Source: Dickeya dadantii NCPPB 898
Lineage (GTDB): Bacteria > Pseudomonadota > Gammaproteobacteria > Enterobacterales > Enterobacteriaceae
Length of the DNA: 32,000 nucleotides
Direction: 5' to 3'
Assembly (NCBI RefSeq): GCF_000406145.1
Contig: NZ_CM001976.1
Location: forward strand, 897,260 to 929,259
In this document: positions 23,911 to 32,000 of the stretch, piece by piece
Layout: each line of letters opens with the position of its first letter
Position numbering within the stretch: the first letter of the stretch is position 1
The notes under the pieces: model-generated
Told to the model about the DNA's origin: nothing
Database searches by the model: none
Seen by the model: only the letters and a program-made list of their open reading frames with translations
Translations under genes and position numbers: made by a program

Positions 23911-25128
23911 TTAAAACCCCATCGGCGGCGGCGGTGCAGACGACGCGCCGCTACTGTCGCTTGCCGTCTGTTGGCTGATCACCACCTCCTCGCCGGGCTG
24001 CACGCCGGAGAGCAGTTGGATATACGCGTTGTCGCTGATGCCGGTGGTCACTTCGCGTAGTTCCGGCCGGCCTTGCGGCTGGGTCACCTGGACAAACAGT
24101 TTTCCCTGGCGGTTAATCAGCGCGCTGACCGGCGCCACGATGGCGCGTTTGGCTTCCGATAGCAGAATATAAACCTGTGCGGTCATGGAAATGCGCAGGG
24201 TTTCGTCCGGGTTGTCGACATCGAACAGGCCGTTGTAGTAGATGGCGGAGCTGGAGGAGCTGCTGCTGGTACTGCTGGTGGTGGTACCACTGCCGCTGGT
24301 GCTGCTGCTGTCGCTGCTGATGGATTCCGGCGCCGGTTCGATGGCGCGCAGCACCGCCTGATAGCGCTTGTTCGGATTGCCGAGAATAGTGAACCACACC
24401 GGCATGCCGGTCCTGACGTTGATAACGTCCGCTTCCGAAATTTTGGCTTCAATCGTCATGGTGTCGAGGTTGGCGACCTTGGCGATGGTCGGCGCGCTCT
24501 GCACCGCGTTGACGGTTTGTCCCTGTTCGACCGGCAACGCCACCACGGTGCCGTTCATCGGCGAGACAATCTTGGTGTAACCCAGATTGACCTGCGCGGT
24601 GTTGACGGCGATTTTCGCTCGTACAATCTGGGCGTCCAACGCGTCGATATCGGCCTGCGTGGCGTCCAGCGTGGCTTTGGCGCTGTCGTAATCCGCCTGC
24701 GCGCCGACGCCTTTCTGCATCAGACTGTGCTGGCGTTGCCAACTGAGCTGGTTATTGCGCAGCGTGGCCTGTCTGGAGGCACGTTGCGCCTGAATGTTAT
24801 CCAGCGCCGCCTTGCTGTCCCGCAGCGTGTTCTGCTGGGTTAAATCGTCGATTTCGGCCAGCAACTGCCCCTGTTTCACCTTATCGCCCAGCGAGACATG
24901 CAATGCTTTGATTTGCCCAGAAACCTGCGCGCCGACGCTCACCAGTTTACGCGCGTTGACGGTACCGTCGGCCAGCACGGTCTGTTGCAGATCGCGGACA
25001 TCCACCGTGGCCGTAATATAATTCGGCGGGGGCGCCGGTCGGGACAGGCGAAAGGCGACGAACAGGGTAAGCGCGGCAAGGCCGGTCAGAATCCACCAGA
25101 AACGGCTGGAGCGGGGTCGGTATCTCAT
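23911..25128 (-). CDS. macA: MacA periplasmic adaptor (membrane fusion protein) with a Ser/Thr-rich insertion
   Basis: This is an HlyD/MFP-type protein located 3 nt upstream of macB. I prefer the start at MRYRPRSSRFWWIL (ATG 25128), because a basic N-terminus followed by a TM segment resembles E. coli MacA. The ORF-track start at 25176 is the alternative, and neither has a good SD. The protein contains a coiled-coil hairpin, a lipoyl domain and a beta-barrel. Confidence 0.85.
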   Translation of the reverse strand: MRYRPRSSRFWWILTGLAALTLFVAFRLSRPAPPPNYITATVDVRDLQQTVLADGTVNARKLVSVGAQVSGQIKALHVSLGDKVKQGQLLAEIDDLTQQNTLRDSKAALDNIQAQRASRQATLRNNQLSWQRQHSLMQKGVGAQADYDSAKATLDATQADIDALDAQIVRAKIAVNTAQVNLGYTKIVSPMNGTVVALPVEQGQTVNAVQSAPTIAKVANLDTMTIEAKISEADVINVRTGMPVWFTILGNPNKRYQAVLRAIEPAPESISSDSSSTSGSGTTTSSTSSSSSSSAIYYNGLFDVDNPDETLRISMTAQVYILLSEAKRAIVAPVSALINRQGKLFVQVTQPQGRPELREVTTGISDNAYIQLLSGVQPGEEVVISQQTASDSSGASSAPPPPMGF

Positions 25129-25275
25129 CAAAACAGAAGCATCCTTGGCTGAGTAAAACGCCGAAACGAAGAACATAGACAGAACACGCGGCGTGTCCCT
25201 GAATCAGGGAACACGGGCTACGTATAATTTACCCGTCATCCCGCTTCGGATGCGTTATGTTTTGAACAATGAAAG

Positions 25276-25355: not shown

Positions 25356-26036
25356 ATGAAAATTTTACTGGTAGACGATGACGCTGAACTGGGGCACATG
25401 CTGTGTGAATACCTCACGGCGGAAGGGTTCAGCACTTCACAGGTGATGACCGGCAAGGAAGGGGTGGACGGCGCCATGTCCGATCAGTATACCGCGATGA
25501 TTTTGGACATCATGCTGCCGGATATGAGCGGAATTGACGTACTGCGGCAGGTGCGTCGCAACCGCTCGATTCCCATCATTATGCTGACGGCCAAGGGCGA
25601 TAATATCGATCGCGTGATCGGGCTGGAAATGGGGGCAGATGATTATGTGCCGAAGCCCTGCTATCCGCGAGAGTTGGTGGCGCGTCTGCGCGCGGTGCTG
25701 CGCCGTTATGAAGACAAGGCGGAAAAAAGCGAAGACACCGGGACGTTGAACTATGGCGAGCTGGCGATCTGCCCTTCCACCCGCAGCAGCGAGTGGCGCG
25801 GCAAGGCGTTTGATCTTACCGCTTCGGAATTCAACCTGCTGGAGCTGCTGATGCGCTCGTCCGAGCGGGTGGTGACCAAGGATGAGCTGTCGGAGAAATG
25901 CCTGGGACGCCGTCGGGAAGCTTATGACCGCAGCGTGGATGTGCACATCAGCAATATTCGTCAAAAGCTGGCGGCGCTGGATGGGTGTAACCTGACCATC
26001 GAGACGGTGCGCAGCGTCGGATACCGGATTCGTTAA
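25356..26036 (+). CDS. OmpR-family response regulator, CpxR-like
   Basis: The receiver domain reads MKILLVDDD...ILDIMLPDMSGIDVL...IIMLTAKGDNIDRVIGLEMGADDYVPKP, and the winged-helix output reads YDRSVDVHISNIRQKL...VRSVGYRI. By eye it is about half identical to E. coli CpxR. Confidence 0.88.
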   Translation: MKILLVDDDAELGHMLCEYLTAEGFSTSQVMTGKEGVDGAMSDQYTAMILDIMLPDMSGIDVLRQVRRNRSIPIIMLTAKGDNIDRVIGLEMGADDYVPKPCYPRELVARLRAVLRRYEDKAEKSEDTGTLNYGELAICPSTRSSEWRGKAFDLTASEFNLLELLMRSSERVVTKDELSEKCLGRRREAYDRSVDVHISNIRQKLAALDGCNLTIETVRSVGYRIR

Positions 26037-26038
26037 TT

Positions 26039-27442
26039 ATGCATGGAAGGCTGTTCTGGAAGATCCTGCTTGGCTTGTGGCTGACGTTCTTCGTCATTTC
26101 ACAACTGCTGTGGGTAGGGTTCTCATTTTACGGCGAGCGCCCCGAGCCGCCGGAAGTGCGTCAGGGAAAACATACCATGTCGTTGCAAATGGCGCTGGCG
26201 GCGCAGGCGCTGCGTCAGGGGGGGATGGCTGAGCTGGGTCGTACCCTGGCCGACTGGCCGAAGAACGAACGTGTCTATATCAACGTTTCGGTTATCGGCG
26301 ATAACGAAGATATGGCTGGGAATACCTCGCTGCCGGGAATGGGGATACCGGGTGGGCCACTTGGGCGACCCGAGCTGCCGGGGTTTGGGCCGGGGCCGGA
26401 TGGGTTACTGGATCAATTTGAGAAGATGTCGAAGCAGGTGGTGGACGGCCCCGATGGGCAGCGTTACCGGATTAGCTTCGATACCACTCGCTGGCGGAAT
26501 GATGTCATACCGAAGGACATCCCTGCGCCGTTGCCGTTTTTCCTGCATTTGCCGCCGCCGATGATCTGGATTGGCGCGCTGGGCGGCCTGTTGTTCAGCG
26601 GCATGCTGGCCTGGAATCTGGCGCGTCCGCTGAGCCGGTTGCGGGCCAGTTTTGAGCGGGTCGCACAGGGAGACCTGTCGGTACGGCTTTATCCGTCGAT
26701 GCGTCGCCGCCACGATGAGATCGGCGATGTAGCGCGCGATTTTGACGCGATGGTTGGCCGCCTGTCGGTGCTGGTCGGCGCGCGCGAGCAACTGCTGCAC
26801 GATGTCTCCCACGAGTTGCGATCGCCGCTGGCCCGGCTGCAACTGGCGATAGGGCTGGCGCGGCAGAATCCCGACAACGTGGAAAATGCGTTGCAGCGCA
26901 TCGAGCGTGAAGCGGAACGGATGGACAAGATGATCGGCGAAGTGCTTACGCTGTCCCGTGCCGAAAACAACGCGGTCAACAACGAAGAGTATTTCGACCT
27001 GCTCGGGCTGGTGAATGCGGTAGTCAACGATGCCCGTTACGAAGCGCAGGTGCCGGGGGTGGATATCGCGCTCAGCATCAGCGATTACGACGATTACACC
27101 GTCAAGGGTTCGGCGGAGCTGATGCGGCATGCGCTGGATAATATTATCCGCAATGCGTTGCGTTTCTCTTCGCGCGGTCAGCAGGTGTTGGTCACGCTGT
27201 CACGGGATGAGAAAGAGTGGTGTATCGGCGTAGCGGATCGCGGGCCGGGCGTGGAAGAAAGCAAGCTCTCCAGCATTTTCGATCCCTTCATGCGCATTGA
27301 TTCGCCGCAGTCGGGCAAAGGTTACGGACTCGGGCTGGCTATCGCCCGCAAGGCGGTGGTGGCGCACGGCGGCCGCATCGAAGCGGAGAATCGCGACCAG
27401 GGCGGGTTGCAGATCCGTATCTGCATTCCTCGCTGGCAGTAG
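26039..27442 (+). CDS. Sensor histidine kinase, CpxA-like (2 TM, periplasmic loop, HAMP, HisKA, HATPase)
   Basis: It starts 2 nt after the response-regulator stop. The H-box is LLHDVSHELRSPLARL, the N-box is IIRNALRFS, G1 is DRGPGV and G2 is GYGLGLAIA. The periplasmic loop contains a Gly/Pro-rich stretch. Confidence 0.88.
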   Translation: MHGRLFWKILLGLWLTFFVISQLLWVGFSFYGERPEPPEVRQGKHTMSLQMALAAQALRQGGMAELGRTLADWPKNERVYINVSVIGDNEDMAGNTSLPGMGIPGGPLGRPELPGFGPGPDGLLDQFEKMSKQVVDGPDGQRYRISFDTTRWRNDVIPKDIPAPLPFFLHLPPPMIWIGALGGLLFSGMLAWNLARPLSRLRASFERVAQGDLSVRLYPSMRRRHDEIGDVARDFDAMVGRLSVLVGAREQLLHDVSHELRSPLARLQLAIGLARQNPDNVENALQRIEREAERMDKMIGEVLTLSRAENNAVNNEEYFDLLGLVNAVVNDARYEAQVPGVDIALSISDYDDYTVKGSAELMRHALDNIIRNALRFSSRGQQVLVTLSRDEKEWCIGVADRGPGVEESKLSSIFDPFMRIDSPQSGKGYGLGLAIARKAVVAHGGRIEAENRDQGGLQIRICIPRWQ

Positions 27443-27545: not shown

Positions 27546-28511
27546 TTAATGACCATGAAATACGGGGGGGCGGTCTTCGGCTTGTGCAGCCATACCTTCG
27601 ATAAAATCCTTGGTGCGATAAAGCGCGCTGTACTGTGTGCCGAGTTGGGAGAAGGCTATGGCGTCACTGGAATCGACGGCCAGGTGCGCCGATGCCAGCG
27701 TGGTTTGCACGCCGATTGGGCCGCATGCCGCGATTTTGTTGGCGATAGCTATGGCTCTGTCTAGCGTTGCCTGAGGCGTCTCGGCGATCTCTTGCAATAT
27801 TCCCATGCGATATGCATCCTCCGCTCCCCAATGGTCCCCTGTCAGCATGAATCGCATGGCGTTACCCCATCCCGCTTCGCGCACGAACCGAACGGTTGAG
27901 CCGCCTCCGGGGAAACGTCCGTGGGAGTTTTCATCCTGACCGAACCTCGTATTTTCTGCCGCTACCCGGATATCCGCTGACAAGAATAGCTCATGAGCCA
28001 TATTCCAAGTGTCGCCGTGCACGGCGGCGATGAGCGGTTTGGAACGCCGGGTCGGACCATAGTTAAGCGGACTGATGACATGATTCAGGCCCGCCAGAAT
28101 ATTTCCGTTGTTATTGACGGTTGCTTTATAGGCATCCACATCAATACCCCGAGAAAAATTGTCCCCGTGACCGAATAAGATAGCCGCTCGCAGAGAAGGA
28201 TCATGATCGTAGTCGTATATGGCTCTTGCCAGTGCCTGGAATGTTTCAGGATCGATACGGTTTTGGACGACAGGGCGATTGAGCCCCAGTAACACCACTT
28301 GCCCCCGGCGTTCGATCGATAATTTTGTGTTTGGCCCTGGAGGAACGTCAACGAGGGTTGTTGGTTGCGTCGCTGTTTCTGTCGCGGGGGATGGTGTCTG
28401 TTCTGCACCAAGTGCTGCGGATGTCGCCATCGCTATTGTCGGTACGGCGGCGGCGAGGGTGGCTGTTGCCTTAATCAATGTACGGCGCGTTAGATCAAGT
28501 TTTTCTTCCAC
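27546..28511 (-). CDS. Crotonase-fold (enoyl-CoA hydratase/isomerase superfamily) protein with an N-terminal twin-arginine (Tat) signal peptide
   Basis: The start is GTG 28511, with GGAG 8 nt upstream. The Tat motif is T-R-R-T-L-I-K (nt 28470-28490), followed by the hydrophobic region ATATLAAAVPTIAMATSAALGA and then a Thr/Pro linker. The crotonase blocks are VVLLGLNRP, ILFGHGDNFSRGIDV, KPLIAAVHGDTWNMAHELFLSADIRVAA, RFGQDENSHGRFPGGGSTVRF and MLTGDHWGAEDAYRMGILQE. Confidence 0.8.
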   Translation of the reverse strand: MEEKLDLTRRTLIKATATLAAAVPTIAMATSAALGAEQTPSPATETATQPTTLVDVPPGPNTKLSIERRGQVVLLGLNRPVVQNRIDPETFQALARAIYDYDHDPSLRAAILFGHGDNFSRGIDVDAYKATVNNNGNILAGLNHVISPLNYGPTRRSKPLIAAVHGDTWNMAHELFLSADIRVAAENTRFGQDENSHGRFPGGGSTVRFVREAGWGNAMRFMLTGDHWGAEDAYRMGILQEIAETPQATLDRAIAIANKIAACGPIGVQTTLASAHLAVDSSDAIAFSQLGTQYSALYRTKDFIEGMAAQAEDRPPVFHGH

Positions 28512-28867
28512 TTATTACGCTCCAGTTTGGGTAGTCTAGCCTGCTGTGCTCGGTCAACATCACACTGAAAAAACCACCGATGCCCAGATTCAGCCCATCC
28601 GCTCGATGAAGTGCTGACTTGTGACCCGGTGAACATCGTCAGACGGTCGATGAGTCGTATGACGCTTACAGATAAACCCGAGTATTAAAAAGCCCTGGTG
28701 TATGGCAAAGAATCACCAGGCAGCCTTGAGACTGACGCTGGTGGGGGAATGACGTTGGTTGTCTTGTGCGACAGCAAGTGTGAACGCCTCTGTCTGGGGC
28801 GTTGCCGTGATCATGGTGAGACAGGATCACCTTGTGACGTCAACCTGCCGAAGCATCAGTACGTATA

Positions 28868-28890
28868 GTTAATCTTATAATAAGAGTAAC
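28868..28890. promoter_or_regulatory. 23-bp near-perfect palindrome, candidate operator between the crotonase and hxlR-type genes
   Basis: GTTAATCTTAT-A-ATAAGAGTAAC has arms matching at 10 of 11 positions. It lies 158 nt upstream of the hxlR-type ATG and 357 nt upstream of the crotonase GTG. Confidence 0.4.
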
Positions 28891-29047
28891 TTGCCACGCA
28901 AGCGCCCGACCGAATGCTGGATCTGCGGGGATCACTCCCTGAGTGGCCTGAGCTCATCGGCTACCGCATGCCTAAATAAGGCTTTGCGGTTGATGGGGGG
29001 ATTTCTATAATTAATGGTTTATCCAAGGGGCTGGCTTGGGGTGATCA

Positions 29048-29602
29048 ATGCGATCGAAAGGTTTTGATGGAATGGTGTGTTCAATTGCCGGCGTGATGGC
29101 CGCAATTGGCGATCGCTGGGGGTTGTTGATTATTCGTGATCTTGTCTTTGGCATCAGCCGATATGACGAGTTACGTCAATCATCCGGCGTAACCAATGCG
29201 ACGCTAAGCAACCGACTTAAACATCTTGAGGCCAATGGTCTTGTTGAGCGGCGCCGCTATCAAGTGAATCCTGAACGATTTGAATACCTATTAACTCCGC
29301 ATGGTCAGCAGCTTGCCCCGGTCATGGTGGTGCTCTCCCAGATTGGGGATGGTTTAGGCCTATCCGGCGCTTCAGTTCCGCCACTAAAATTTGTGAATCG
29401 AAAAACGGGTGCCGATGTGCGGTGGAGCTTCATCGATCAGAAAACAGGGGAGCCGTTAGGCAGCGAGGATATTGCCTTTGCGGAAGGGCCTGGTGCGGAC
29501 GATTTGGTGCGCTGGCGACTTTCTCATACTAATCGACGTTATGAAGGCGACACCACGACTCTCTTGAGCGAGAACTCAATCTCAGAGCCTAAGACTAAAT
29601 GA
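29048..29602 (+). CDS. HxlR-family winged-helix transcriptional regulator with a C-terminal extension of about 80 aa
   Basis: CSIAGVMAAIGDRWGLLIIRDLVFGISRYDELRQSSGVTNATLSNRLKHLEANGLVERRRYQVNPERFEYLLTPHG is the canonical HxlR/DUF24 core. The product is 184 aa, versus about 110-130 aa for typical members. Met9 (29072) is an alternative start. Confidence 0.82.
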   Translation: MRSKGFDGMVCSIAGVMAAIGDRWGLLIIRDLVFGISRYDELRQSSGVTNATLSNRLKHLEANGLVERRRYQVNPERFEYLLTPHGQQLAPVMVVLSQIGDGLGLSGASVPPLKFVNRKTGADVRWSFIDQKTGEPLGSEDIAFAEGPGADDLVRWRLSHTNRRYEGDTTTLLSENSISEPKTK

Positions 29603-29891: not shown

Positions 29892-30401
29892 TTACTTCTT
29901 GATGCGAATAACCGGGGTTTCCCCAACGACAACGGTGCCGCTCAGTTTGATCAGCTCTTTGATCTCATCCATGTTGGAGATCACGACCGGGGTCAGGGTA
30001 GACTTGGCTTTCTCTTCCAGCAACGGCAGATCAAACTCGATGACCACGTCGCCTTTTTTGACGCGCTGCCCTTCTTCCGCGATACGTTTAAAGCCTTCGC
30101 CTTTCAGTTCAACGGTATCAATACCAAAGTGAACGAACAGTTCGATGCCATTGTCTGATTCGATGGAAAAAGCATGGTTAGTTTCGAAGATCTTACCAAT
30201 GGTGCCGTCCACCGGCGCGACCATTTTGTTACCGCTAGGTTTGATAGCGATGCCATCGCCGACGATTTTCTCTGCGAATACCACATCAGGCACGTCTTCG
30301 ATGTTGACGATTTCACCGGATAACGGGGCAATGATTTCGATGCTGCCGGTTTCTTTCTTGTCGTCAGAAACCAGAGATTTCAGTTTATCGAACAAACCCA
30401 T
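29892..30401 (-). CDS. crr: PTS glucose-specific enzyme IIA component
   Basis: The 169-aa product [16 protein letters not shown]...[27 protein letters not shown]...[40 protein letters not shown] is essentially E. coli Crr. Confidence 0.97.
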
Positions 30402-30442
30402 GATTTTCTCCTAAGCATTAATATTGGGTCAGCACAGCGGTA

Positions 30443-32000
30443 TCAGCAAAGCGTCTTTTCTTTAATGAACCGGCTTACCAGACTGCTTAACTCTTCTGCT
30501 GTCGGCTGGGCTAATGCCTGCTCCGCCAGCGCTTTCGCATCTTCGTAGTTGGCATTGCGAATAATTTTCTTGATGCGAGGAATCGAGATGGCACTCATGC
30601 TGAATTCATCCAGACCCATCCCCAGCAGCAGTAGTGTAGCACGTTCGTCACCCGCGAGTTCACCGCACATGCCTGTCCACTTGCCTTCGGCGTGCGAGGC
30701 GTCGATCACCTGCTTGATCAGGGTCAACACGGCCGGAGACATCGGGTTATAGAGATGAGAAATCAGCTCGTTCCCACGATCTACCGCCAGAGTATACTGG
30801 GTTAAGTCATTTGTCCCAATACTAAAGAAGTCAACTTCCTTCGCCAGATGATGGGCGATGGCCGCTGCGGCCGGGGTTTCCACCATCACGCCGACTTCGA
30901 TTGTTTCGTCGAACACTTTGCCTTCCGCACGCAACTGGCCTTTGAGCATCTCCAGTTCGGCTTTCAGCGTACGCACTTCTTCCACCGAAATGATCATCGG
31001 GAACATGATGCGCAGTTTGCCGAACGCGGACGCACGCAGAATAGCGCGCAACTGCGAATGCAGAATTTCCTTGCGATCAAGGCAGATACGAATCGCACGC
31101 CAGCCAAGGAACGGGTTCTCTTCCTTCGGCAGGTCCATGTACGGCAGGTCTTTGTCGCCGCCGATGTCCATGGTGCGCACGATCACCGCCTGCTCGCCCA
31201 CCGCTTCCGCGACGGCTTTGTAGGCCTGGAACTGCTCTTCTTCGGTCGGCAGGGCATCGCGATCCATGAACAGGAATTCGGTGCGATACAGGCCCACGCC
31301 TTCCGCGCCGTTACGCTCAGCGCCGGCGACGTCGCGCACGGTACCGATGTTGGCGCACACTTCCACCTGATGACCGTCCAGCGAGATGGCCGGCAGATCT
31401 TTCAGTTTGGCGAGTTCATATTTCTCGGTGTTGTACTGTTCCTGAACGGCCTTGAGCTGGTCAATGGTAGCCTGATCAGGATTCTGGTAAATCTTGTTGT
31501 TTACCCCGTCCAGAATGATGAAATCGCCATTCTTGATTTTCTGGGTGGCATCGGTGGTGCCCACGATAGCGGGCAGTTCCAGCGAACGCGCCATGATTGA
31601 GGTATGGGACGTACGGCCGCCGATATCGGTAATAAAACCCAGCACCTTGTCCAGGTTCAACTGCGCGGTTTCGGACGGGGTCAGATCTTTGGCAATCAGA
31701 ATCACTTCGTCCTGGATGTCGCCCAGGTCGACGATGTGCAGGCCCAGAATGTTTTTCAGCAGGCGCTTGCCGATGTCGCGCATATCCGCGGCGCGCTCTT
31801 TCAGGTATTCGTCATCCAGTTCTTCCAGCGCTTTCGCCTGGGTCTCGATGACGGAAAACGCCGCCGCGTCCGCGGACGCGTGGTCGTCTTTAATCAGGGA
31901 GATGATTTCCTGCTCGAATTCCTCATCTTCCAGCAGCATGATATGCCCTTCGAAGATGGCTTCTTTCTCTGGCCCCAGCGTTTCAGCCGCTTTTTGCTTG
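30443..32000 (-). CDS. ptsI: PTS enzyme I (phosphoenolpyruvate-protein phosphotransferase), 5'-truncated by the window edge
   Basis: The C-terminal 498 aa or so match E. coli PtsI ([21 protein letters not shown] phospho-His region, [16 protein letters not shown]-terminal KEKTLC). The reading frame stays open upstream of Met 31939 (..[25 protein letters not shown]) to the end of the window. Confidence 0.95.

Follow-up and report, generated by a model that had tools for sequence, protein, structure and literature searches.

Crotonase-fold enzymes are canonically cytoplasmic and act on acyl-coenzyme A (acyl-CoA) thioesters, the catalytic glutamates of rat enoyl-CoA hydratase being Glu144 and Glu164. 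6-Oxocamphor hydrolase and the beta-diketone hydrolase of Anabaena are CoA-independent members of the superfamily, also cytoplasmic, that act on free ketones using His together with Asp or Glu residues, and no CoA-thioester pool is known in the periplasm. Among thiol-based regulators of the HxlR/DUF24 type, the described regulators and regulator-target pairs include YodB and HypR of B. subtilis, QorR-QorA of C. glutamicum and YtfH-QorB of E. coli, with quinone or electrophile reductases as targets, and to our knowledge none of these regulators controls an exported enzyme. Here we describe a divergent gene pair from Dickeya dadantii NCPPB 898, found in a stretch of 32,000 nucleotides (contig NZ_CM001976.1, positions 897,260 to 929,259; hereafter the window, to which all coordinates below refer), in which a crotonase-fold protein with a predicted twin-arginine translocation (Tat) signal faces a long HxlR-family regulator.

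The reading that we favour, with about even confidence in the chain as a whole, comprises a long HxlR repressor with Cys11 as its putative sensor, a Tat-exported crotonase that would act on an enolisable carbonyl by CoA-free hydration, isomerization or C-C/C-O cleavage, and the organization of both as a derepressible two-gene module. In its most far-reaching form, to which we give a probability of about 0.5, the exported clade including this protein would have left CoA chemistry altogether and would use a His173-Glu174/Glu194 centre outside the cytoplasm to hydrate, isomerize or cleave free carbonyl electrophiles, the copy of Dickeya and relatives being wired to a thiol-sensing long HxlR repressor through the 25-bp operator. 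A preliminary description of this DNA could name no described function for the pair, and that still stands: searches of the literature on Tat or periplasmic export in connection with crotonases or enoyl-CoA hydratases found no description of an exported crotonase, those on TATFIND, on Dickeya HxlR proteins and on HxlR together with NmrA or quinone found neither an exported crotonase nor a long-HxlR regulon, and the database labels for all members of the family were the generic "enoyl-CoA hydratase" only.

The two open reading frames (ORFs), present exactly as the preliminary description had given them, are separated by 536 bp:

27546-28511, minus strand: coding sequence of the putatively exported crotonase-fold precursor (321 amino acids, GTG start; ECH_1, 1.3e-33).
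29048-29602, plus strand: coding sequence of the long HxlR-family regulator (184 amino acids; ADM97143.1; PF01638, 2.8e-22).
27552-28328, minus strand: crotonase-fold catalytic domain, residues 62-320 of the precursor (PRK06563 over 62-320; 3SWX over 63-309).

The precursor had 99% identity to ADM97142.1 of D. dadantii 3937 (UniProt E0SB44; cluster representative P0001), and the regulator was 99% identical to cluster representative P0121, the accessions of which include ADM97143.1 of the same strain. Analysis of the precursor with the Pfam model ECH_1 (PF00378) gave a match far above cut-off across the whole domain (116.8 bits versus a cut-off of 27; residues 69-320, profile positions 3-250 of 251). 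The best NCBIfam model was PRK06563 ("crotonase/enoyl-CoA hydratase family protein") with 255.6 bits, slightly below its cut-off of 261, and the equivalog cut-offs of the hydratases were all missed (EchA19, 201 versus 400 bits; PaaF, 122 versus 371 bits). The nearest solved structures by sequence were 3SWX (2.5e-52, residues 63-309) and 3LAO (7.9e-46), at approximately 40% identity. An AlphaFold2 model based on a 31-sequence alignment reached a predicted local distance difference test score (pLDDT) of 66 (40-66 over the five models, with residues 1-47 below 50), which is adequate for fold assignment and too poor for inspection of the CoA pocket; with this low-confidence model, the top Foldseek matches were all crotonases, with 3SWX (3.4e-20) and 3LAO at the top and target-normalized TM-scores of 0.66-0.76. 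The profile and structure matches together bear out the crotonase fold that had been proposed. A search of the species-representative genome collection gave matches to the family in at least 553 stretches, and its members come mostly from bacteria associated with soil and plants (Acidobacteriota, Bradyrhizobium, Rhizobium, Burkholderiales and Dickeya). It is particularly frequent in soil groups that are abundant and little understood, such as Acidobacteriota and Bradyrhizobium, and in the plant pathogen Dickeya.

Upstream of the catalytic domain, the precursor carries the elements of a twin-arginine signal:

28404-28511, minus strand: predicted twin-arginine signal peptide, residues 1 to about 36 (MEEKLDLTRRTLIKATATLAAAVPTIAMATSAALGA), with the RR codons at 28482-28487 and a putative cleavage site.
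28520-28523, minus strand: Shine-Dalgarno sequence GGAG, 8 nt upstream of the GTG.
28329-28403, minus strand: Thr/Pro/Gln-rich linker, residues 37-61, of a length and sequence that vary between homologues, with low pLDDT over residues 1-47.

The N-terminus consists of TRRTLIK, then a hydrophobic stretch and then small residues, and the start region M/V-E-x-K-L-D-L-T-R-R is kept in other Dickeya. Both R9 and R10 were invariant in all 31 aligned homologues, which came from several phyla (Dickeya, Rhizobium, Bradyrhizobium, Inquilinus, Pandoraea, Methylosinus, Paraburkholderia and metagenomes), with the linker being variable. Of the 120 best database relatives, about 104 carried the twin arginines and 103 matched twin arginines followed by a hydrophobic stretch, with the consensus (A/T)-R-R-x-L-I-K-A-T and a Lys at +5 of the Tat motif in 88 of these 103 proteins, and the mean hydropathy of their h-region was 1.72, versus 1.99 in members having a signal for the general secretory (Sec) pathway. 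Such a classical Sec signal replaced the Tat signal in nine of the 120, the remainder being truncated gene calls; Sec signals were also seen at the genome loci of family members in Pseudomonas and Bradyrhizobium jicamae, and a lipobox was found in one 50%-identity cluster (P0250). The occurrence of three signal types (Tat, Sec and lipobox) at one and the same position argues that an extracytoplasmic location is a selected trait. Some homologues were without the N-terminal extension. The arginines invariant in 31 homologues and the RRxLIK consensus uphold the twin-arginine signal that had been noted before, while the alternative of hitch-hiker export, also raised there, was rejected as unneeded since the crotonase has a signal of its own. 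We consider it very likely that the crotonase is exported out of the cytoplasm.

In a search of 1.84 billion cluster representatives, the near relatives of the Dickeya protein were few, namely the exported clusters P0241, P0243, P0246 and P0249 (Tat) and P0250 (lipobox), beyond which came cytoplasmic proteins of about 260 amino acids. A neighbour-joining tree of 16 sequences united the eight exported ones into one clade with a bootstrap value of 100%. This clade has residues of its own: His173, directly before the catalytic Glu, was found in 8/8 exported sequences, with Ile or Leu in 8/8 cytoplasmic sisters; Trp228 was found in 8/8 exported sequences and in none of the eight sisters, which mostly have Phe; and Arg85 (in 7/8 exported sequences) and Gly202 track the clade likewise. 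In terms of sequence, these residues and the monophyly favour a change of substrate class along with export. In the cytoplasmic sister clade, P0257, P0265 and P0269 are fusions of an acyl-CoA synthetase with a crotonase, of 519-895 amino acids.

The putative active site of the exported protein is contained in three motifs:

28140-28157, minus strand: FSRGID, residues 119-124, replacing the canonical F-x-A-G-A-D; there was no variation at F119, S120, G122 and D124 and hardly any at R121.
27987-28019, minus strand: HGDTWNMAHEL, residues 165-175, holding the predicted catalytic Glu174; H165, G166, T168, W169, N170 and E174 are invariant.
27927-27938, minus strand: QDEN, residues 192-195, holding the predicted second catalytic Glu194; Q192, D193, E194 and N195 are invariant.

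Conservation across phyla amounted to a mean column identity of 67% and was concentrated on the active-site motifs, which within the family are nearly invariant (GHG(D/E)xFSRGIDV, HGDTWNMAHEL and FGQDENxHGRFPGGGST). E174 aligns with the Glu of GGTE and E194 with that of ISE in EchA19, both being invariant in the alignment of 31 homologues. The divergence of FSRGID and HGDTWNMAHEL emphasized in the preliminary description is hence real and near-invariant, but the loss of the catalytic loop that it implied did not hold up, as both glutamates are kept. For the 3-hydroxypropionyl-CoA dehydratase of M. sedula (Ms3HPCD), Ala65, Gly110, Glu113 and Glu133 were reported as completely conserved among enoyl-CoA hydratases, and its CoA phosphate ligands are Lys24, Lys59 and Lys251, with Lys59 binding the CoA diphosphate (PMC6048173). 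By motif offset, Ala65 and Gly110 of that enzyme would correspond to Ile123 and Met171 in the Dickeya crotonase, and Lys59 and Ala63 to Asp117 and Arg121. Position 117 was acidic (Asp or Glu) in 31/31 sequences, and where 3SWX, 3LAO and EchA19 have an NRPxx(K/R)NA loop, its basic residue or residues have given way to V/I-Q-N-R. The protein accordingly has the two glutamates of enoyl-CoA hydratases (E174 and E194) and lacks the Ala and Gly that true hydratases have in the oxyanion hole (Ile123 and Met171 instead), where backbone NH groups could still function. As judged from these alignments, the active site is remodelled and not lost, and we find it probable that the crotonase acts independently of CoA. 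The Arg121-for-Ala exchange was also considered as a mark of the exported clade; it was weakened as such, with the cytoplasmic sisters varying at that position too.

The regulator comprises the following parts:

29105-29350, plus strand: winged helix-turn-helix (HxlR) domain, residues 20-101 (PF01638).
29360-29542, plus strand: conserved C-terminal extension, residues ~105-165 (19-sequence alignment; alignment with 4GCV).
29543-29599, plus strand: variable C-terminal tail, residues 166-184 (19-sequence alignment).
29078-29080, plus strand: codon of Cys11, candidate thiol sensor and the only invariant cysteine.

PF01638 matched residues 20-101 with 78.8 bits (cut-off 20.8), and the 83 C-terminal residues beyond the HxlR domain consist of about 60 conserved and about 20 variable ones. 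4GCV aligned to residues 2-164 of the regulator (3.7e-16) and PA1607 (2F2E) to residues 10-142 (6.2e-13), and the thiol-based HxlR/DUF24 regulators 5HS7 and 4A5M were also among its PDB matches. The extra C-terminal domain of about 80 residues had been called unusual; the extra residues are there, but the extension is covered by 4GCV and 2F2E and belongs to a large family, with 1137 matches and at least 519 metagenome loci for the long HxlR proteins. By these alignments, the regulator is a member of the PA1607/BosR-4GCV class of long HxlR proteins. PA1607 is BosR, a regulator of biofilm fitness in P. aeruginosa, for which the N-terminal Cys has been proposed to be a sensor of oxidative stress (PMC9611778). 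Cys11 was invariant in 19/19 regulator sequences, including relatives with 28-35% identity, and aligns with the N-terminal Cys of PA1607, 4GCV, B. subtilis HxlR (7BZE) and the structures of the YodB family. The subfamily of the window regulator extends over Burkholderia, Paraburkholderia, Pseudomonas, Bradyrhizobium and Rhizobium at 75-80% identity. An alternative database gene call of 176 amino acids starts at Met9 (the segment concerned being 29048-29071); the N-terminal MRSKGFDG is kept across classes, which supports the 184-residue start. In a metagenome-assembled genome (MAG) of Binatus (L024:5353-5865) and in an actinomycete MAG (L028:7304-7741), crotonase genes have as neighbours distant long-HxlR relatives with cysteines in the C-terminal extension (e.g. 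HKLCGKMFDPVTTCSECGQPL), which suggests that the extension originated as a zinc-ribbon-like domain with the cysteines having been lost in the Dickeya subfamily.

The intergenic region between the two genes contains the following elements:

28867-28891: candidate operator O1, a 25-bp palindrome (AGTTAATCTTAT-A-ATAAGAGTAACT) overlapping a TATAAG/TATTAT -10-like element that faces the crotonase.
29002-29017, plus strand: degenerate second operator copy (TTTCTATAATTAATGG) around the hxlR -10 TATAAT (29006-29011), conserved in sequence among Dickeya species.
28512-28866: long leader or spacer between O1 and the crotonase start, of which about 270 bp is absent from D. dianthicola.

O1 was the sole inverted repeat found in 28400-29100, and its core CTCTTATAATAAGAG was matched with one mismatch, versus 0.26 matches expected by chance. 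The palindrome (T/A)AACTCTTATAATAAGAGTTA was present in 10/10 compared intergenic regions adjoining a long HxlR gene, with exact copies of the core being restricted to loci having the long HxlR and absent from loci without the regulator. At the position of the second operator, other taxa have CTCTTATAATCAGAG, this weaker copy surrounding the regulator's own TATAAT. A -35-like TTGCGG (28984-28989) is separated from this TATAAT by 16 nt, the two forming a candidate hxlR promoter, which we infer from the sequence and which a promoter scan did not pick up. As the palindrome contains the -10-like hexamer of the crotonase-facing promoter, repression by occlusion would be the simplest reading. With regards to gene order, a long HxlR gene divergently adjoined the crotonase in six of the eight loci having a crotonase at least 69% identical to that of the window (L002, L003, L011, L012, L013 and L091, these paired loci being from Bradyrhizobium (L002), Pandoraea (L003), D. 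undicola, Rhizobium sp. BK251, a Rhizobiales genome and D. dianthicola), and the two genes were also side by side in Paraburkholderia solisilvae (L054), with a crotonase 56% identical. The conserved synteny and the conserved palindrome argue that regulator and crotonase are functionally paired, in agreement with the pairing already proposed in the preliminary description, and on this sequence evidence a regulatory link between the long HxlR protein and the crotonase is likely, a conclusion that we hold with good confidence. As for the leader, D. undicola has the stretch of about 270 bp only in part, and a sigma-70-like site lies inside the D. dadantii version (28708-28681, minus strand). A hairpin at ~28696-28722 was no more stable than shuffled sequence (z -0.74), and within 28512-28866 we found no remnant of an NmrA-like, membrane-protein or hydrolase gene, no Rfam family and no plasmid match.

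Taken as a mechanism, a dimer of the regulator would bind the palindrome at 28867-28891, cover the -10 element of the crotonase-facing promoter and repress it, and the repressor would be released once a quinone-, enone- or aldehyde-like electrophile or oxidant had modified or oxidized Cys11. Folding of the crotonase precursor, with a trimer or hexamer as the probable product, would take place in the cytoplasm and precede export through TatABC directed by TRRTLIK. In the periplasm, with no CoA, the backbone oxyanion hole would polarize the carbonyl of the substrate, whereupon Glu174 and Glu194 together with His173, Trp228 and Arg85/Arg121 could carry out water addition, isomerization or hydrolytic cleavage of an enolisable carbonyl, with alpha,beta-unsaturated or beta-dicarbonyl compounds as candidate substrates. 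The assignment of enolisable carbonyls as the substrate class is a guess, and that the module answers electrophile or quinone-type stress is a tentative proposal, somewhat less probable than not in our view. The pair would in that case be a self-contained, mobile stress or detoxification module.

The surroundings of the pair in the window are an OmpR-type response regulator and a sensor kinase on one side (25356-27442) and crr and ptsI on the other (29892-31939), so that the ORF positions confirm the placement between a two-component system and crr given before. In D. dianthicola the pair is likewise found at the crr locus, in the same arrangement as in the window, and in D. undicola it is found at an unrelated chromosomal site without sensor kinase or crr. 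Occupancy of two chromosomal sites within Dickeya suggests that the crotonase and HxlR genes travel together, and the pair may be a horizontally mobile module. A functional tie to the adjacent two-component system or to crr was rejected on account of the D. undicola pair, which sits elsewhere without them. The sensor kinase adjoining the crotonase (26039-27442, plus strand) is rich in Pro and Gly over one stretch (GIPGGPLGRPELPGFGPGPDG) of the part predicted to be periplasmic, and an ORF for a MacA/HlyD-like efflux adaptor (23911-25176, minus strand) carries a Ser/Thr-rich low-complexity insert.

Beyond Dickeya, where the cassette consists of regulator and crotonase only, the long-HxlR cassettes downstream of the operator are combinations of five gene families. 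The commonest partner of the regulator was a cytoplasmic NmrA-like protein of 364 amino acids, present at about 24 of 36 close loci. Two families of multi-pass membrane proteins of about 300 and 200 amino acids (L002:7041-7943 and L005:4004-4606, with homologues in L012, L013, L054 and L093-L122) gave no match in Pfam or NCBIfam, share AG(T/W)GD(V/L)I(T/A)GLMA and adjoin the NmrA-like gene, the crotonase or an exported hydrolase. This last protein is a MetX-like (homoserine-acetyltransferase-type) alpha/beta hydrolase with an N-terminal signal (PRK06489, 'hypothetical protein'; L005:2725-3933 in Burkholderia, L010 and L093-L121). In sister cassettes the MetX-like hydrolase takes the place of the crotonase, being a second normally acyl-CoA-linked fold exported under the same regulator, and no complete locus that was examined had both; the two proteins may stand in for each other as periplasmic activities. 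The NmrA-like protein, both membrane-protein families and the MetX-like hydrolase obtained no informative Pfam, NCBIfam or PDB names.

We also clustered all ORFs within 5 kb on either side of the crotonase at about 85 loci, ignoring the many spurious antisense ORFs of the high-GC genomes. Among these neighbourhoods no conserved catabolic operon, pathway or recognizable transporter family was found, and the neighbours varied. The recurrent ones were of stress types or regulatory, with genes for NmrA-like proteins, short-chain dehydrogenases/reductases, aldo-keto reductases and quinone-oxidoreductase-like proteins, a DUF417 protein, regulators of the MarR, TetR and LysR types and, in the wider family, a secreted protein of about 200 amino acids. 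At 10 loci the gene immediately upstream of the exported crotonase, reading in the same direction, is one of the 4-oxalocrotonate tautomerase family (with N-terminal Pro1; Tautomerase/Tautomerase_2) (L033:7532-7861, L016, L029, L031, L037, L056, L059, L065, L081 and L089); these loci are mainly from Acidobacteriota and also from Burkholderia/Paraburkholderia (L056 and L059), an alphaproteobacterial MAG (L037) and a Binatus MAG (L081), and some of them have a second small protein of the Pro1 type and a DUF417 membrane protein downstream.

Several of the results weigh against the favoured reading. The Pfam model TAT_signal (PF10518) gave only 13.6 bits on the crotonase N-terminus, below its cut-off of 22.7, so that the case for Tat rests on conservation and not on the hidden Markov model. 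A minority of the family, comprising a Bradyrhizobium paralogue group, several Actinomycetes and one Paraburkholderia protein, has no signal at all with the same active-site motifs, from which it follows that the substrate must occur in the cytoplasm too and that the chemistry of the family is not exclusively periplasmic. Glu at the position of Lys59 is found also in the cytoplasmic 3LAO, and a residue other than Ala before the Gly also in several cytoplasmic sisters; since these changes of the CoA site occur in cytoplasmic relatives, loss of CoA binding is not proven. The non-CoA substrate deduced in the preliminary description is still the most economical reading (one clade with its own active-site signature, having sisters that include acyl-CoA-synthetase fusions). 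With about 355 bp between O1 and the crotonase start, of which about 270 bp is lineage-specific and contains the promoter-like site, HxlR control may be partial, and in D. dadantii this stretch may serve as a promoter of the crotonase that does not depend on HxlR, or else as a long leader. The Tat crotonase was found in 3 of about 30 evaluable regulator loci (approximately 10%), and most loci of the wider crotonase family, those of Acidobacteriota among them, were without the long HxlR gene, so that the idea of a general pairing had to be abandoned. With the crotonase being rare at regulator loci and the regulator rare at crotonase loci, the electrophile-stress reading rests on one sub-clade.

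A role in nutrition instead of defence, in which the enzyme would perform a periplasmic step on a specific plant or soil compound (for instance an enoate, a cyclic beta-diketone or a derivative of a lactone or phenolic) with import of the product, and the HxlR protein would be a ligand-responsive pathway regulator, would agree with the predominance of the family in soil and plant-associated bacteria, with the tautomerase gene directly upstream at 10 loci and with the membrane proteins and cytoplasmic NmrA-like protein that co-travel like a transporter and a downstream enzyme. We nevertheless regard it as rather unlikely, because the neighbours vary widely with no conserved catabolic operon or recognizable transporter family among them, the sole invariant cysteine of the regulator is at the sensing position of thiol-based HxlR-family regulators and the Dickeya module has two genes only. 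The intact overall architecture of an enoyl-CoA hydratase, with both catalytic glutamates, could also mean that the exported enzyme still acts on thioesters (pantetheine-, glutathione- or protein-bound acyl thioesters) with classical hydratase or isomerase chemistry, and it is in line with this that its substitute in sister cassettes, the MetX-like hydrolase, is of a family normally using acyl-CoA. That no periplasmic pool of CoA thioesters is known, that the positions of the Ms3HPCD contacts with the CoA phosphates are acidic or neutral here and that the His, Trp and Arg peculiar to the clade suggest another way of holding the substrate make this improbable.

Catalysis itself could be questioned if the exported protein were inert as a hydratase, being instead a binding or scaffold protein, or a protein anchored to the membrane by an uncleaved Tat signal. 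Dickeya provides a precedent for such anchoring in PnlH, which has an uncleaved Tat signal, and the Dickeya crotonase has no good AxA site directly after the h-region (AALGA-EQ) and a long flexible linker following the signal. However, the very high conservation of the active-site motifs argues for catalysis, and in homologues one sees either obvious cleavage sites of the ALA type or an AxA within a Sec signal, whereby an inert or anchored protein has a low probability. The database annotation as a plain enoyl-CoA hydratase, the sub-threshold TAT_signal score and the existence of homologues without the N-terminal extension would all be compatible with an ordinary cytoplasmic enoyl-CoA hydratase for which the start was mis-called (with the true start at, for example, Met28) and the twin arginines were untranslated or fortuitous. 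This is very improbable, considering that the twin arginines and RRxLIK are invariant as protein across Proteobacteria, Acidobacteriota and others with a variable linker downstream, that a Shine-Dalgarno sequence precedes the GTG, that independent Sec and lipoprotein signals occur at the same position in relatives and that every hydratase equivalog cut-off of NCBIfam was missed.

A conserved clade sent across the membrane by Tat, Sec or lipoprotein signals implies reactions on compounds other than CoA esters, in a place where one would not look for crotonases. If the clade has indeed left CoA chemistry, it would be a new functional class of the superfamily, with members in Acidobacteriota, Alpha-, Beta- and Gammaproteobacteria and other soil bacteria. 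The Dickeya copy offers a clean entry point, being a two-gene module of a tractable organism with a predicted operator, one candidate Cys and two candidate Glu. The inducer of the regulator would hint at the substrate of the enzyme, and would also inform on the larger HxlR/NmrA-like regulon family in Burkholderia and Pseudomonas.

In comparison with known systems, the closest proteins are 3SWX (Mycobacterium abscessus), 3LAO (Pseudomonas aeruginosa) and those of PRK06563, which have the fold, both catalytic glutamates and GWGNAMR in common with the window crotonase; 3SWX and 3LAO, which are structural-genomics proteins without assigned function, differ in being cytoplasmic, of about 260 amino acids and without a signal peptide, and in two motifs, the FSRGID and A-H-E-L of the window protein being FTAGLD and G-I-E-L in them. 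With ECHS1 (rat and human), EchA19 (M. tuberculosis) and the M. sedula 3-hydroxypropionyl-CoA dehydratase it shares the spiral fold, the acid/base pair of two glutamates and the backbone oxyanion hole, whereas it departs from the canonical hydratases in the Ile123 and Met171 that would stand for the oxyanion-hole Ala and Gly, in Asp or Glu for the Lys of the CoA diphosphate and in its predicted export. The likeness to 6-oxocamphor hydrolase and the beta-diketone hydrolase would be one of functional analogy only, no entry of the former type being among the 60 PDB sequence matches listed or the 50 Foldseek matches. On the side of the regulator, PA1607/BosR (2F2E) and 4GCV share the winged helix-turn-helix, the C-terminal extension of about 60 residues and the N-terminal Cys, but the match is distant (by eye from the alignments) and the window subfamily is a separate one with its own palindromic operator; BosR is known as a biofilm-fitness regulator only, with undefined targets. 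YodB, HypR, QorR and YtfH show the same divergent layout of regulator and target and an N-terminal sensing Cys, although they are short (about 105-130 amino acids) compared with the 184-residue regulator of the window. Taken singly, fold, Tat signal and class of regulator are all known already, and what appears to be undescribed is a monophyletic clade of exported crotonases with an active-site signature of its own, together with its operator-defined coupling to a long HxlR protein.

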